The notes: generated from the letters alone by a model not told the origin. 64,000 bases of DNA from an uncultured Candidatus Berkelbacteria bacterium (GCA_963698075.1 OY969116.1:19881-83880), one strand, 5' to 3'. Shown: positions 32,765-44,480, numbered from the stretch's first letter. A program made the numbers and translations.

Positions 32765-35044
32765 ATGTTTGGACTTCGGCGGGCAAGTCTCCTTCAAGGA
32801 GGGAGTTTGATTGTAGCCAATGATAAAAAATTAATTGATGTTCTCGTGGACACCGGTAAAATCAAAAAAGAAAATGTCCGTGATTTTGGAAATTTGTCTA
32901 ACCAGACCCTAGAGGACAAACTTAAAGCTCAAGGTATCCTCTCGGAGGAAGATATCAATCGGGCCTATGGGATTCTTTATGCGTTGCCTGCTATAAATTT
33001 GAAAGACCTGAAGATCCCCAAAGAAACTTTGGCGATAATTCCGGAGAACTTGGCCCGGCAATATAAAATTGTTGCTTACGAAAAAACGAATGATGTTCTT
33101 AAGGTTGCCGTGGCTGAACCAGGAAAATTATCGACGAACCTTAACCAGGTTTTGGAAGACATCAAAACCAAGAAAGGTTTAAAAATTATGCTAGCAATGA
33201 CCTCGATGGAAGATTTGAATTTTGCTATAGAACAATACTTTCATCGAAAAACTCCTCCAGCTGTCACCCAAAAGGCCAGTCGCGAGATTAATTTGGAAAC
33301 AATCCAAATTCCTTATGAAGTTATAAGCAAGTTTCCTGAAGATATTGCCCGCAAATATAAAATGGTCGTTTTTGAAGCCCCACATCCATCTTTCATCAAG
33401 GTGGCTGTGGCCGATCCTAGCGATAAAAAGGTGAGAGAAATCCTTGATTTTATTAGAGAAAAAAATGATATCGCTATTGAAGAATACATCGCCACACCTG
33501 GTCAAATTCATCAAAGCTTCAGGTTCTATGAACCTCCAAAAACAGCTATTTCGTCTTCAACGGAGTCGACGGTTGCCAATAAGCCAGCGCCACCAAGTGT
33601 TAGTTTACCGCCAATAACTCAGGCAGTTCCTGAATTAGCTCCTAAAAAATTTGTATCTAGGCCCGCCCCGCCTGTCTCGCCGAGCCAAGGCGGACCGCCC
33701 GGAGCGCCAATTACCAAACCTGTTCCCGCCCAAAAGACATCACTTAAAGAAGAAGAAATTCCTGAAGTGCAAGGCAAGGAGACCGAAACTCCTCTTGATA
33801 TCTCCAATGAAAATGATTTGGATACTTTTCTGGGTCAGGAGATTAAAGATGTTGGTGATCTCCAGGCATTTGCCGAAGGGGAACATATTCCTAAAACTAT
33901 CGCCGCCATTATTGCTTTAGCTGTTCGCAACAAAGCTTCCGATATTCATATCGAGCCCACGGAAAAATTTTTGAGAGTTCGTTATCGAATCGATGGCATT
34001 TTACGCGATATTATTAAACTGCCTTTAGAACAACAGCCGGCGATTATTTCCCGAATAAAAATCTTATCAAATTTAAAAATCGATGAGTCTCGCATTCCCC
34101 AAGATGGTCGTTTTGATGTAAAAACCAGTAATCATCAAATTGACTTAAGAATTTCGACTTTGCCAACCGTCAATGGCGAAAAGGCCGCGATGAGAATTTT
34201 GGATAAATCTCTCCAGATGTACACTCTTGAAGAACTTGGTTTAGCTGGTCGAGGTCTCAAAATTTTAATTGAAAATATCGATAAACCATATGGTATCGTC
34301 TTGGCAACCGGTCCGACTGGCTCTGGCAAATCCACGACTTTGTATGCTATCTTGAGCCGAATTTCCACCGCTTCCGTCAACATTATTACTTTGGAAGATC
34401 CGGTGGAGTATGAATTACCGGGCTTGAATCAATGTCAAATCAAACCGAAAATTGGCTTCACTTTTGCCAATGGACTCCGCAGTGTTCTTCGTCAAGATCC
34501 CAATATTATTATGGTTGGTGAAATCCGCGATGCGGAGACGGCTTCTCTGGCTACCCACGCTGCTTTAACTGGCCAACTGGTCTTGTCGACCCTCCATACC
34601 AACGATGCGACAGGAGCTTTGCCGCGACTAACTAATATGGGAGTTGAGCCCTTTTTGATTACTTCATCGACCAATTGTATCATTGGCCAAAGATTGGTCA
34701 GACGGCTCTGCGCCAAATGCAAGCGACCAGCCCATATCCCCGAACCAGTCGAAAAAGAAATCGAAAGGGAATTGGCTAAATTCAATTTACCCAAGCCGTA
34801 TCATTTTTTTGAAGGCAAAGGTTGTCCGGAGTGTAATCAAGGTTATCAAGGGAGAGTCGGAATTTTTGAAGTTTTACCGATGTCAGAAAAAATCGAAAAT
34901 CTGGCGATTACCCGTCGGCCAGCATCAGAAATCAAAACTGCCGCGATTGAAGAAGGCATGATTACGATGAAGCAAGATGGTTTAATCAAGGCAATCAAAG
35001 GGATCACCACTGTCAATGAAGTTTTAAGAGTAGTGTCAATATAA
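32765..35044 (+). CDS. pilB: type IV pilus assembly ATPase PilB (GspE family) with two N-terminal MshEN-type domains and a Pro-rich linker
   Basis: Walker A GPTGSGKSTT, Asp box, His box, tetracysteine CAKC...CPEC. An approximately 100-aa proline-rich spacer precedes the N2/ATPase core. Confidence 0.85.
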   Translation: MFGLRRASLLQGGSLIVANDKKLIDVLVDTGKIKKENVRDFGNLSNQTLEDKLKAQGILSEEDINRAYGILYALPAINLKDLKIPKETLAIIPENLARQYKIVAYEKTNDVLKVAVAEPGKLSTNLNQVLEDIKTKKGLKIMLAMTSMEDLNFAIEQYFHRKTPPAVTQKASREINLETIQIPYEVISKFPEDIARKYKMVVFEAPHPSFIKVAVADPSDKKVREILDFIREKNDIAIEEYIATPGQIHQSFRFYEPPKTAISSSTESTVANKPAPPSVSLPPITQAVPELAPKKFVSRPAPPVSPSQGGPPGAPITKPVPAQKTSLKEEEIPEVQGKETETPLDISNENDLDTFLGQEIKDVGDLQAFAEGEHIPKTIAAIIALAVRNKASDIHIEPTEKFLRVRYRIDGILRDIIKLPLEQQPAIISRIKILSNLKIDESRIPQDGRFDVKTSNHQIDLRISTLPTVNGEKAAMRILDKSLQMYTLEELGLAGRGLKILIENIDKPYGIVLATGPTGSGKSTTLYAILSRISTASVNIITLEDPVEYELPGLNQCQIKPKIGFTFANGLRSVLRQDPNIIMVGEIRDAETASLATHAALTGQLVLSTLHTNDATGALPRLTNMGVEPFLITSSTNCIIGQRLVRRLCAKCKRPAHIPEPVEKEIERELAKFNLPKPYHFFEGKGCPECNQGYQGRVGIFEVLPMSEKIENLAITRRPASEIKTAAIEEGMITMKQDGLIKAIKGITTVNEVLRVVSI

Positions 35045-35136
35045 ATAACTAAAAACTAAAATGTAAAAACTAAAAACTACAGCTTAAAGCATAAAAAAAT
35101 CGATATCATTTAACATTTGCGTTTTAAGCTTTAAGT

Positions 35137-36219
35137 TTGACCGGAGGGAACATGCAAATTACATTAGATCCAACGATGAAAAAACTTCTCGATCTCGCGA
35201 TCGAAAGGAAGGCCTCTGATCTCCATTTAACCGTCGGGGTGCCGCCAACTATCCGTATTGATGGTAAATTAAGTGCTGTCCCCGATGAACCGGTTTTGAC
35301 CACCGAGACGGTCTCCAGGCTGATTCAGTCTTTTATGACGAGTGAGCAATTGGAGCGGCTAAAAATTCGCAAAGAAGTTGATTTTTCCTTTGGTTATCAG
35401 GATATGCGTTTTCGGACTAATACTTATTTTCAAAAAGGTAACCTTGCCGCTTCTTTGAGGTTAATTCCTAAACTTATCAAAAGCATTAACGAACTAGGTT
35501 TACCGCCAATTTTGGAGAAGTTTACCAATCCTTCGCAAGGATTTTTTATCATTACTGGGCCAACCGGCCATGGCAAATCCACCACCTTGGCGGCGATGAT
35601 TAACCATATTAATCACAACCGTGCGGAGCATATCGTTACCATTGAAGACCCAGTCGAATATGTTTTTGAACATGATAAGTCGATTATTTCCCAAAGAGAA
35701 GTCGGTTCAGACACCAATTCTTTTGCGAGAGCCTTACGCTCTTCTTTGCGCGAAGATCCTAATGTTGTTTTGGTAGGGGAAATGCGTGATCTCGAGACTA
35801 TTGATGCCGCCCTAACCTTGGCCGAAACTGGCCATTTGGTTTATACCACCTTACATACCAATTCCGCCTCTCAGACAGCTGATCGTATCATTGATGTTTT
35901 TCCTCCTCATCAACAACAGCAAGTTCGGATGCAGTTGGCCAATGTCTTGCTTGGGGTTGTCTCGCAAAGATTAATCCCAAGAACCTCCGGCGGTCGAATT
36001 GTTGCTTGTGAAATTATGGTCGCCAATTCCGCTGTTAGAGCCACCATTCGTGAGGGTAAAACTCATCAATTGCCCAACATCATCCAAACTTCAGCCTCAG
36101 AAGGAATGATTACCTTAGATAAAGTCTTGGCTGAATTGGTTAGTAAAGGCGAAATCACCATTGATAATGCCTTAACCTGGTCACTCGATCCCAAAGCGTT
36201 TAAGATGATGGTGTATTAG
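35137..36219 (+). CDS. pilT: twitching-motility retraction ATPase PilT
   Basis: About 360 aa PilT-size protein. Walker A GPTGHGKSTT, EDPVEY, GEMRD. Lacks the N-terminal extension of PilB. Confidence 0.85.
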   Translation: MTGGNMQITLDPTMKKLLDLAIERKASDLHLTVGVPPTIRIDGKLSAVPDEPVLTTETVSRLIQSFMTSEQLERLKIRKEVDFSFGYQDMRFRTNTYFQKGNLAASLRLIPKLIKSINELGLPPILEKFTNPSQGFFIITGPTGHGKSTTLAAMINHINHNRAEHIVTIEDPVEYVFEHDKSIISQREVGSDTNSFARALRSSLREDPNVVLVGEMRDLETIDAALTLAETGHLVYTTLHTNSASQTADRIIDVFPPHQQQQVRMQLANVLLGVVSQRLIPRTSGGRIVACEIMVANSAVRATIREGKTHQLPNIIQTSASEGMITLDKVLAELVSKGEITIDNALTWSLDPKAFKMMVY

Positions 36220-43461: not shown

Positions 43462-43962
43462 ATGCAAAAACAAAAATCCTTTACTTTAATCGAGCTTTTG
43501 GTGGGGGTGAGTATTTTTATTGTTGTCGTCGTGATCGGTTTAGCCACAGTCGTTACCTTGAATCGGAATCGCTCAAAAACCGAAACCATTTCCAATATTC
43601 AAACATCCGGCAATTTGGCCATGGAAATAATGGTCAACAGAGTTGAGACCGCCACGAGTTACAGTTTCATTTCCGGTACCAGTACTTTAACTGTTTCCTC
43701 TGGAGGAAAAAATTATCAATTTAGTCGGGCTGTTGACGCCAACAATATAGGTTATGTGGGAATGACAGTAAGTGGTGTAACGGGAATACAACGTTTAACA
43801 TCCCCAGATGTGAATATAGGCCTAAACGATCTTAATTTCACAGGAGTTTCTGGATCATTTACCGTTAAAAATTACGTTACCATCAATCTAATTTTGCCGA
43901 GTACTTGGGTTGGAAGCACTGAAACACTTACTTTACATAGCACAGTTATCGCTCAATTATAG
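43462..43962 (+). CDS. minor pilin (Ser at -1)
   Basis: [24 protein letters not shown]. Placed among the minor pilin genes. Confidence 0.55.
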   Translation: MQKQKSFTLIELLVGVSIFIVVVVIGLATVVTLNRNRSKTETISNIQTSGNLAMEIMVNRVETATSYSFISGTSTLTVSSGGKNYQFSRAVDANNIGYVGMTVSGVTGIQRLTSPDVNIGLNDLNFTGVSGSFTVKNYVTINLILPSTWVGSTETLTLHSTVIAQL

Positions 43963-43973
43963 GAAGAAATAAA

Positions 43974-44480
43974 ATGAAAAACATTTTTCAGACCAAAAAA
44001 AGCGCCGCCTTGATTATCGCCTTGCTAATTATTTCGGCTGTAGCAATTTTTGCTTTCACCGCCGCCCGGTCAATTACTGGCAGTATCGGCCGGACATCTC
44101 GGACCAGTGAAGCTATGATAGCCGAAGAAGCCGCCAAAGGCGGAATTGAATGGGGATTATTAACTTTGAAAGGTTGCAGCCCCTCTGCTCCATACCCCTC
44201 ATCTAAGACCTGTTATGTGTACAATGGAAGCGCTAATAGTGTTTGTACACTGAATTTTCCCACCGATGCCACTCCTTCTTCATGTACTACAACTATTCCC
44301 GATATCAACAAAAGATATGCTGATATTCGGGGGTATGTGACCGTGAACGTCGATCTTATCGGAAGTGTCACGGGAAAAACGGGTGAGGTCTATTCCATCG
44401 GCAAATTTGGTGGTGTTCACAAAGGACTAAAGGCGACAATAACTATTAGTCAAACAACTATCGATTATATTAATTATTAG
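43974..44480 (+). CDS. PilX-like minor pilin (N-terminal anchor without canonical cleavage motif)
   Basis: KKSAALIIALLIISAVAIFAF hydrophobic N-terminus, as in PilX N-terminal domains. Last gene of the pilin block. Confidence 0.45.
   Translation: MKNIFQTKKSAALIIALLIISAVAIFAFTAARSITGSIGRTSRTSEAMIAEEAAKGGIEWGLLTLKGCSPSAPYPSSKTCYVYNGSANSVCTLNFPTDATPSSCTTTIPDINKRYADIRGYVTVNVDLIGSVTGKTGEVYSIGKFGGVHKGLKATITISQTTIDYINY

Follow-up and report, generated by a model that had tools for sequence, protein, structure and literature searches.

The question raised by this locus is why three small genes of one protein family should lie in the spacers of a single type IV pilus operon. The operon was found in a 64,000-nucleotide stretch of DNA, here called the window, from an uncultured Candidatus Berkelbacteria bacterium (GCA_963698075.1 OY969116.1:19881-83880). 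A preliminary description of this DNA had read a pilus locus in the order pilB-pilT-pilC-pilin-pilD-pilins with three four-helix-bundle (4HB) protein genes in its gaps, and this order of the pilus genes, all of them on the + strand, was borne out by an open reading frame (ORF) listing and Pfam searches. The three small ORFs (120-122 aa) were located in the spacers pilC-pilin (c1), pilin-pilD (c2) and pilD-pilin (c3), designated sites 1, 2 and 3. We consider it likely that they belong to three mobile cassettes of the intervening-sequence (IVS) type, accompanied by two possible ORF-less relatives, which are co-transcribed with the operon and probably cut from its mRNA by RNase III. Directly supported here are the protein family, the cassette architecture, insertion polymorphism, the relocation of one lineage, co-orientation and purifying selection. 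The cassettes were delimited as listed below, the boundaries of cassette 1 being set by an empty site in one related contig (L001) and a homologous cassette at another site in a second one (L101).

37434-37866 (about), + strand: cassette 1, lineage A, with a 121-aa ORF at 37450-37815; 5' arm at about 37457-37476, inside the N-terminal codons, and 3' arm at about 37838-37869.
38423-38852, + strand: cassette 2, lineage B, with a 120-aa ORF at 38439-38801; 5' arm at 38423-38446, overlapping the ATG, and 3' arm at 38829-38852.
39667-40133, + strand: cassette 3, lineage C, with a 122-aa ORF at 39707-40075; outer arms at 39667-39695 and 40105-40133.

All three proteins matched PF05635 (46.9-58.9 bits, cut-off 33.8; E 3e-12 to 7e-16) and TIGR02436 (67.8-74.3 bits, cut-off 24; E 9e-19 to 8e-21), the two profiles named for checking in the preliminary description. 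An AlphaFold2 monomer model of c3, with a predicted local distance difference test score (pLDDT) of 92.5, contained four helices at residues 12-26, 35-57, 62-89 and 91-120. The best Foldseek matches of this model were 2RLD, with a template modelling (TM) score of 0.78-0.88, and 2GSC (TM about 0.8), both entries holding five chains, and a phmmer comparison with 2RLD gave E 1.7e-12. The Avd structure 4DWL matched the c3 model with TM 0.61-0.78. Judged by the model, 2RLD and 2GSC, structures of the S23p/IVS-protein family, are nearer to the 4HB proteins than Avd is. None of the three proteins was matched by PADLOC and PHROGs models, no relatives were found in IMG/VR viral contigs in a scan of limited sensitivity with the family alignment, and no fourth 4HB copy was detected in the 64 kb by tblastn.

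Pairwise identities among c1, c2 and c3 were 50, 50 and 61%. In database searches the closest relative of c1 was 85% identical and the next 55-62%. Relatives of c2 were found at 89% and 83%, followed by more than 100 proteins at 62-74%, c3 being only 61% identical to c2. The c3 protein was 95% identical to a protein of the related contig L007 and 75-83% identical to hundreds of proteins, from records naming Nitrospirae, Deltaproteobacteria, Cloacimonetes, TA06, Wolfebacteria and others. Each copy is closer to proteins elsewhere (85-95%) than to its neighbours (50-61%), and three lineages of one gene family are therefore recognized. The earlier term "paralogs" holds in so far as the genes are homologous and all match PF05635 and TIGR02436, but by sequence comparison they are homologues of the different lineages A (c1), B (c2) and C (c3) and not local paralogous duplicates.

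Each of the three ORFs is bracketed by inverted repeats, 37459-37475/37844-37860 for c1 (17 nt, 88%), 38423-38446/38829-38852 for c2 (24 nt, 83%) and 39667-39695/40105-40133 for c3 (29 nt, 79%), the last being the longest in the window. Among the 15 inverted-repeat pairs of at least 20 nt within 600 nt in the whole window, the c3 arms ranked first and the c2 arms fourth. The arm score was reached by 0/500 dinucleotide shuffles for c2 and by 3/500 for c3. The inverted repeats AAATCCTAA/TTAGGATTT noticed previously around copy 3 were found again, although every copy and not only copy 3 is bracketed in this way; exact TTAGGATTT occurs only three times in the window, all within the c3 arms. An inner pairing in c3 joins ATGTCAAAT at 39707-39715, which holds the start codon, with ATTTGACAT at 40070-40078 in the stop-codon region. 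The 14-mer CATTTAATAATTTA, reported earlier after two of the copies, is present at 38808-38821 (c2) and 40076-40089 (c3) and is part of a homologous inner 3' arm, with CATTTAATAATTC at the equivalent place in L007. Self-identity at a lag of 7 nt was 0.47-0.55 in the 5' flanks of c1 and c3 and 0.38 in that of c2. No AGGAGG-like motif was seen ahead of the three 4HB ATGs; the pilin genes carry one. A terminal closing stem around the ORF was present in the minimum free energy (MFE) and centroid folds of c1, c2, c3, a 4HB cassette of the related contig L002 and a GIY-YIG cassette of L007, with 20 bp in both folds of c2. The setting is not an rRNA gene: Rfam found just five tRNAs in the window, and the cassettes lie between protein-coding genes.

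The same layout was observed far outside this genome. Eighty metagenome loci with homologues were fetched and the flanks of 78 intact cassettes were compared. In nearly all of the 78, three to six tandem short units (e.g. AAATCCT/AATTTCT, AATGACG, AAATCCG, CAAATGT, CTAATTNNN) are placed upstream of the ORF and reverse-complement units downstream. The ATG lies within the innermost 5' unit (ATGTCAAATGA, ATGACCAATGA) and no Shine-Dalgarno sequence is present. The sequence of the unit varies among cassettes, and the two arms of one cassette change together. When each 5' flank was aligned with the reverse complement of its own 3' flank the median score was 41, compared to 16.5 with the own 3' flank reversed but not complemented and 18 with it shuffled (each control beaten by 97% of the cassettes), and 26 with the 3' arm of another cassette (beaten by 85%). 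Flank-motif conservation, another check proposed for the locus, was thus found across the 78 cassettes. The main repeat period was 7 in both arms (lag-7 identity 0.43-0.44 versus 0.21 in ORF DNA), with a period of 9 in a minority of cassettes, and the length from outer arm to outer arm was 423-564 nt with a median of 475 nt. Both neighbouring genes were on the cassette strand in 46 cases and both opposite in one; the upstream neighbour was co-oriented in 60/69 and the downstream neighbour in 59/71. Median gaps to the neighbours were 50 and 67 nt, which is about the length of an arm, so that the cassette fills its spacer. In the 3' flanks of several cassettes (L021, L034, L039, L054, L061) arm units of the 5' type reappear, together with an ATG-like start, which suggests tandem or nested partial cassettes.

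Orthologous pilus loci were compared in syntenic Berkelbacteria contigs, which were reached via PilC and the 4HB proteins and have the order L33-pilB-pilT-pilC-pilin-pilD-pilins-rnhA-ileS. The spacers were occupied as follows.

Window: ORF-less candidates at pilB-pilT and pilT-pilC; c1 at site 1, c2 at site 2, c3 at site 3.
L001 (PilC 78% identical): GIY-YIG ORF at pilT-pilC; site 1 empty with an 84-nt gap; site 2 empty; site 3 empty with a 10-nt gap.
L002: 4HB cassette at pilT-pilC; the contig ends before sites 1-3.
L003: a pilin gene and no 4HB gene at pilT-pilC; none at sites 1-3.
L007: GIY-YIG ORF at pilT-pilC; ORF-less remnant of ~150 nt at site 1; a 4HB gene only 47% identical to c2 at site 2; the c3 orthologue (95%) at site 3; an extra cassette at mp1-mp2.
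L101: ORF-less remnants at pilT-pilC and site 1; the L007 site-2 lineage (82%) at site 2; the c1 lineage (85% to c1) at site 3.
L010 and L013: one cassette each, among the minor pilins.

The operons of L001 and L003 are intact without any 4HB cassette, and at least six distinct spacers of the pilus operon are occupied across six related contigs. In an alignment of window site 1 with L101 site 3, homology covered the 5' arm, the ORF and the 3' arm, the flanks were unrelated and the homology stopped sharply at …TTTATAATTTGG(G/A)ATTT. One and the same cassette thus occupies different spacers in these two related genomes. Gain, loss and relocation among orthologous loci argue for mobility and exclude a fixed pilus gene. 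The comparison with orthologous loci advised in the preliminary description thus showed 4HB genes that are variably present and placed, and its suggestion of repeated insertion of a small selfish IVS-like cassette is supported by this polymorphism, the family matches and the conserved flank architecture. Transfer of the cassette between pilin genes via the conserved pilin 5' coding repeat was considered and rejected, as the homology between window site 1 and L101 site 3 ends before the spacer and the pilin ATG.

A second kind of small gene was observed in the same operon. In L007 (4562-4840) and L001 (9522-9806) a GIY-YIG ORF of 92-94 aa (Pfam E 1.8e-15; PHROG homing endonuclease) fills the pilT-pilC spacer, a place taken by a 4HB cassette in L002 and by nothing but repeats in the window. 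The ORF is accompanied by an inverted repeat of its own (GTCATTCTGAG…GAAGAATCTC / GAGAGATCCTTC…CTCAGGATGAC) nested within heptamer or 9-mer arm repeats, and the outer 5' arm of this cassette resembles that of the L002 4HB cassette. Such free-standing homing-endonuclease-like genes are, like the 4HB cassettes, small, co-oriented, variably present and equipped with an inverted repeat, but the protein and the repeat are different and the window has no GIY-YIG gene.

The preliminary description had offered as an alternative that the 4HB proteins are structural or regulatory pilus parts recruited three times. The three copies and those of five related contigs all lie inside the pilus operon, as this would predict. 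However, the genes are absent from intact orthologous operons (L001, L003), their positions are not conserved, and 74/80 homologous cassettes have no pilus gene within 3 kb; pilus genes were found within that distance of 6/80 distant cassettes, where PilD is 34-49% identical. The nearest relatives of c2 and c3 outside Berkelbacteria lie between unrelated housekeeping genes. Placements in other phyla include AI-2E transporter-4HB-TerB and rpsO-4HB-NYN-pnp, relatives of c2 adjoin bPH and LiaF/CYTH genes, and proteins 75-80% identical are found beside rpsO-pnp, AI-2E/TerB and other genes in other phyla. Recruitment as a pilus accessory protein is on these grounds very improbable, and the 4HB protein is not a pilus component. 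In one of the distant loci (L019:3635-7295, another phylum) a cassette 79% identical to c3 lies between rpsO and pnp. In E. coli, the rpsO-pnp spacer is a classic RNase III processing site.

The protein appears to be maintained by selection. Between c3 and its L007 orthologue 6/122 residues differ (dN, nonsynonymous divergence, 0.021; dS, synonymous divergence, 0.73; dN/dS 0.03), and the family median of dN/dS over 80 pairs was 0.19. As judged from these substitution rates, the 4HB protein is functional and under strong purifying selection. Comparison of the lineage-A ORF of the window with that of L101 gave 98% identity in the first ~110 nt and about 75% in the 3' half. Synonymous sites of pilT, pilC, pilD and rnhA are saturated, with a proportion of differing sites (pS) of 0.71-0.79, compared to 0.47 in the cassette and 0.39 in one minor pilin. 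Since synonymous divergence varies along the locus in this way (pS 0.39 to 0.79), the pilus locus is regarded as a recombination mosaic. Taken together, the sequence comparisons point to strong constraint plus exchange between lineages. The major pilin (37938-38333) is only 45-63% identical to those of L007, L101 and L003, where PilT is 85-95% identical.

The Pfam family is also that of Avd, a pentamer that binds RNA and reverse transcriptase, and diversity-generating retroelements (DGRs) are common in the candidate phyla radiation (CPR). The three genes could accordingly be DGR remnants, namely Avd genes left behind after loss of the reverse transcriptase or serving one encoded elsewhere. Avd (PDB 4DWL, 8UB7) shares with the 4HB proteins the family, the four-helix-bundle fold and a basic character, and the fold match given above fits as well. 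A scan for reverse transcriptases and transposases covered 39 window ORFs outside the cassettes (30 flanking and nine pilus/RNase H ORFs), about 23 shorter ORFs being outside the scan; it gave no reverse transcriptase, and the sole RVT_3 match among the ORFs scanned was the RNase H gene. No template/variable repeat pair was found in the window, the only long direct repeats being the pilin N-termini. The structural match to Avd is weaker than that to S23p (2RLD, 2GSC), heptamer arms are not a DGR feature, and three copies with such arms do not correspond to the layout of a DGR. This origin is therefore considered the least credible of those weighed here.

A closer parallel is offered by the IVSs of rRNA genes. 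In Coxiella burnetii the IVS is a selfish element of 428-444 nt in helix 45 of 23S rRNA, which contains the S23p ORF, has terminal inverted repeats forming a 28-bp stem and three tandem heptamers (GACAGAT) just upstream of the S23p ATG, where the Shine-Dalgarno sequence is poor, and is cut by RNase III at the first heptamer (PMC4990558). 23S_rRNA_IVP ORFs have likewise been reported in insertions of CPR 16S and 23S rRNA genes (PMC11270868). The window cassettes resemble the S23p-bearing 23S rRNA IVSs of Coxiella burnetii, Leptospira, Xanthomonas and Brucella in their single PF05635 ORF, a total length of about 430-500 nt, a stem around the ORF made by terminal inverted repeats (weaker in c1), tandem heptamers directly before the ATG with a poor or absent Shine-Dalgarno sequence, and a patchy, horizontally spread distribution. 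They differ in their location, which is the spacers of a protein-coding operon and not helix 9, 25 or 45 of rRNA, and in a protein under strong purifying selection (dN/dS of 0.03-0.19), in contrast to the reported decay and lack of translation of the Coxiella ORF. RNase III excision has been demonstrated for Coxiella and others, whereas here it is expected by homology. The CPR insertions involve the same protein family, CPR hosts and several scattered insertion sites, but they lie in rRNA genes, and that paper (PMC11270868) describes neither flanking heptamer arms nor a location in mRNA operons. As the window cassettes share every structural feature of the Coxiella IVS except location, they were filed as IVS-type elements outside rRNA.

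With this assignment, the pilus operon would have been colonized at least three separate times by an IVS-type cassette of about 430-470 bp each. The cassette consists of one PF05635 4HB ORF between two inverted arms, each a tandem series of 7-nt units; the start codon, which falls within the innermost 5' unit, is predicted to pair with the stop-codon region, and no Shine-Dalgarno sequence is present. The cassettes fill whole spacers, always in the direction of the host genes, and for this reason probably depend on transcription of the operon, with which we infer them to be co-transcribed. By analogy with the rRNA IVSs of Coxiella and Leptospira, the arms would pair in the polycistronic RNA as a stem of 20-30 bp that is cleaved by RNase III. 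Cleavage would free the 4HB ORF on an RNA of about 400 nt and leave the operon transcript as separate pieces for pilBTC, pilin, pilD and the minor pilins. The probable ligand of the 4HB protein is nucleic acid, with the heptamer arms of its own cassette as the most plausible target, and the protein would serve the maintenance or spread of the element.

Several results speak against such elements acting through RNA, or soften the evidence for them. Mismatches in the arms comprised 87 G:T/T:G and 109 A:C/C:A pairs and hence no excess of sense-strand G:U, which an RNA stem under selection normally shows; complementarity may accordingly be kept at the DNA level. The arms are AT-rich and the stems thermodynamically weak, and the c1 arm score was reached by 42/500 dinucleotide shuffles, which makes it marginal alone. 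Whole-cassette folding energies were no better than those of shuffled sequences (z +0.9 to -2.6), and only the recurrence of the closing stem is informative in these folds. RNAduplex energies of the 100-nt flanks did not separate the cassettes from a sliding window background (fractions 0.17-0.83); with AT-rich arms set against a background of GC-richer coding DNA this statistic is uninformative, and it was replaced by the alignment score against the reverse complement with its three controls. A target-site duplication was not detected, the longest shared word outside the arms averaging 4.93 nt compared to 4.77 nt in mismatched controls over 67 cassettes; TTAACAA is present on both sides of site 1 but is not general. 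Neither transposase nor recombinase nor reverse transcriptase was found among the window ORFs scanned. The taxon labels of the distant homologues are those given in the records of metagenome-assembled genomes (MAGs). Finally, at a site kept since the split of the window and L007, a dN/dS of 0.03 is less easily reconciled with a purely selfish protein than with one that is useful to the host or addictive.

Some of these observations could be explained by a DNA transposon or an element similar to a miniature inverted-repeat transposable element (MITE), in which the heptamer arrays are terminal inverted repeats bound on double-stranded DNA, by a transposase supplied in trans or by the 4HB pentamer itself, and the RNA stem is incidental. 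Arms without a bias of G:U over A:C would be expected of such an element. Inverted tandem sub-repeats resemble multiple protein-binding sites, and the 5' arm of c3 is 100% identical to that of L007 across 43 nt despite the dS of 0.73 in the ORF, indicating a sequence-specific constraint and not merely pairing. A whole cassette with sharp ends at two different sites and the existence of ORF-less remnants fit equally. However, neither the lack of a target-site duplication over 67 cassettes nor that of a transposase in the scanned ORFs fits, the 46:1 co-orientation is unexpected for a transposon with its own promoter, and the homologous rRNA IVSs have been found by experiment to act at the RNA level. 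A DNA transposon is thus regarded as unlikely, though it merits serious consideration.

Two further spacers of the operon may hold ORF-less relatives or remnants of the cassettes, the assignment of the first being tentative.

35045-35136, + strand: pilB-pilT spacer, candidate ORF-less arm-only element, with xxCTAAA heptamers followed by ATTTAAC/TTTTAAG/CTTTAAG heptamers.
36220-36345, + strand: pilT-pilC spacer, candidate ORF-less arm-only element, with AAAGCTTA/AAGCTAA units, a loop, then GCTTTAA/CATTTAA/CCTTTAA units.

The pilB-pilT spacer had a lag-7 self-identity of 0.62, the highest of the 29 window spacers of at least 60 nt, and a self-inverted-repeat z of only 0.5. The pilT-pilC spacer folds as one long imperfect hairpin (-19.5 kcal/mol, z -0.8). 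Its arm-versus-arm score of 29 was reached by 4/500 shuffles, its lag-7 identity was 0.51 and its self-inverted-repeat z was low (0.8). In lag-7 identity these two spacers rank above all others of the window, and their second heptamer series is roughly complementary to the first; the case for both as candidates is made by this periodicity and the arm-versus-arm test, the folding and inverted-repeat evidence being weak. In relatives the pilT-pilC spacer is occupied by a 4HB cassette in L002, by GIY-YIG cassettes in L001 and L007 and by an ORF-less remnant in L101. Remnants consisting of arms only, about 150 nt long, were seen at site 1 in L007 (6004-6150) and L101 and at pilT-pilC in L101 (2200-2390 and 978-1156 in L101), positions that hold full cassettes in other genomes. 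The two window spacers resemble the ORF-less state of the Correia/NEMIS elements of Neisseria and similar MITEs, which are likewise small and intergenic with terminal inverted repeats. Correia elements are co-transcribed with their neighbours and their RNA hairpins are cut by RNase III. They have no ORF, duplicate a TA target and belong to one genus, in contrast to the conserved ORF, the lack of a detectable duplication and the cross-phylum distribution seen here.

All three window copies and all five spacers with a lag-7 identity of at least 0.40 belong to the pilus operon; in the remaining 24 window spacers of at least 60 nt the value was 0.17-0.35. This concentration is only suggestive of a cassette hotspot, as the enrichment estimate is without a proper genome-wide background, and it would also be expected if the cassettes had been domesticated as punctuation of the operon. 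They would then be kept for the effect of their excision, which severs the pilC, pilin, pilD and minor-pilin parts of the pilus mRNA from one another, so that pilin message accumulates independently of the machinery genes, with the 4HB protein tuning the process. Cassettes on both sides of the major pilin gene, the same lineage at site 3 in the window and L007 with its dN/dS of 0.03, the pilus genes near 6/80 distant cassettes and the restriction of cassettes and heptamer-periodic spacers to this operon within the 64 kb can all be read in this way. Nevertheless, the operons of L001 and L003 are intact without a cassette, sites and lineages differ between close relatives, and most homologues lie in unrelated operons. 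Domestication therefore seems doubtful, and mobile IVS-type cassettes are preferred.

IVS elements and S23p/Avd-like proteins have been known since the early 1990s, and to our knowledge neither the role of the S23p protein nor the way in which IVSs spread was ever settled. The searchable literature gave no description of heptamer-armed IVS-type cassettes widespread in mRNA operons across phyla, nor of strict host co-orientation, site polymorphism, lineage swaps, ORF-less remnants or a strongly conserved protein of such cassettes. Only PMC4990558 and PMC11270868 were relevant to the family or to IVS-like elements outside rRNA. Should elements of this type prove routine in the mRNA operons of many phyla, IVSs would not be peculiar to rRNA; rRNA would be one of the habitats of a small mobile cassette of general occurrence, which both tolerates host transcription and depends on it. 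The pilus loci could serve as a tractable comparative system: insertions are numerous and independent, sites are found both empty and filled, remnants without an ORF and swaps of lineage at a single site are present, and the protein is strongly constrained. Cassettes of this kind may explain many of the genes annotated as "four helix bundle protein" that lie dispersed in CPR and other genomes, and neither a role in the pilus nor the presence of a DGR should be deduced from such genes. In these bacteria with their tiny genomes, RNase III may divide the mRNA of the pilus operon at the places where elements are inserted. More speculatively, and with the odds against it, the heptamer-armed 4HB cassette could be an unrecognized, phylum-crossing class of mobile element of operon spacers and rRNA genes that moves without a conventional transposase. 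Once RNase III had excised the RNA of its element, the Avd-like pentamer would recognize the heptamer arrays on this RNA (or on the DNA) and bring about re-insertion, for which a host polymerase or reverse transcriptase might be used, and in CPR the cassette would have been co-opted to cut pilus mRNA, thereby setting the ratio of pilin to machinery.

The host operon itself comprises the following features in addition to the cassettes and the ORF-less candidates.

32765-35044, + strand: pilB, assembly ATPase, the first gene of the operon (Pfam T2SSE, E 4e-124, and MshEN).
35137-36219, + strand: pilT, retraction ATPase (Pfam T2SSE, E 9e-48).
36375-37433, + strand: pilC, platform protein (Pfam T2SSF, E 2e-59, two stretches).
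37938-38333, + strand: major-pilin-like gene, 131 aa, with cassettes on both sides (Pfam N_methyl, E 4e-10).
38334-38422, + strand: two strong hairpins at the 3' end of the pilin gene (-42.1 kcal/mol, z -7.07).
38866-39648, + strand: pilD, prepilin peptidase (Pfam A24_N_bact, E 8e-32, and Peptidase_A24).
39642-39664, + strand: short hairpin across the pilD stop codon (-13.2 kcal/mol, z -4.7).
40139-44480, + strand: eight downstream pilin/minor-pilin-like ORFs, N_methyl motif in 7/8.

Two of the seven downstream ORFs with the N_methyl motif scored under the Pfam cut-off, and the ORF at 43974-44480 is the one without it. N-terminal coding repeats are conserved among these pilin-like genes, as seen in a direct-repeat search. 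The pilus locus is followed by the RNase H gene (rnhA, 44580-45017) and ileS. A consensus promoter/terminator scan of the locus gave nothing decisive and no convincing terminator between genes; the best promoter-like site was at 32667-32695, upstream of pilB.

The hairpins before copy 2, which had been counted among the features of that copy, are real, as shown by their z of -7.07. They are also present at the empty site of L001, and in L007, with compensatory changes, and are therefore a feature of the pilin 3' end and not a part of the cassette. A long hairpin straight after the major pilin is found in the window (38334-38401), L001 (11585-11645) and L007 (about 6600-6680) regardless of the presence of a cassette, and is probably a 3' stabilizer or an attenuator of pilin mRNA. 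Site-2 cassettes insert directly downstream of the second post-pilin hairpin.

A few further features of the window were observed. Inside rnhA, in-frame tandem heptamers AAACTCG AAATCCG AAACTCG AAATCCG at 44646-44680 encode …KLEIRNSKSEIR…; these units are of the same type as the 5' arms of the cassettes and have no complementary partner nearby. Between tRNA-Tyr and tRNA-Thr, an 82%-identical copy of the 3' half of tRNA-Tyr (32131-32180) is found at 32229-32278 and is a partial tRNA duplication or pseudo-tRNA. The region 57566-59145 has 50-63% GC in a window of about 40% GC and contains two ORFs (271 and 255 aa) without a Pfam match, the first with a signal-peptide-like N-terminus and a Pro/Ala-rich stretch. 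This block may be foreign DNA or encode a compositionally odd surface protein.

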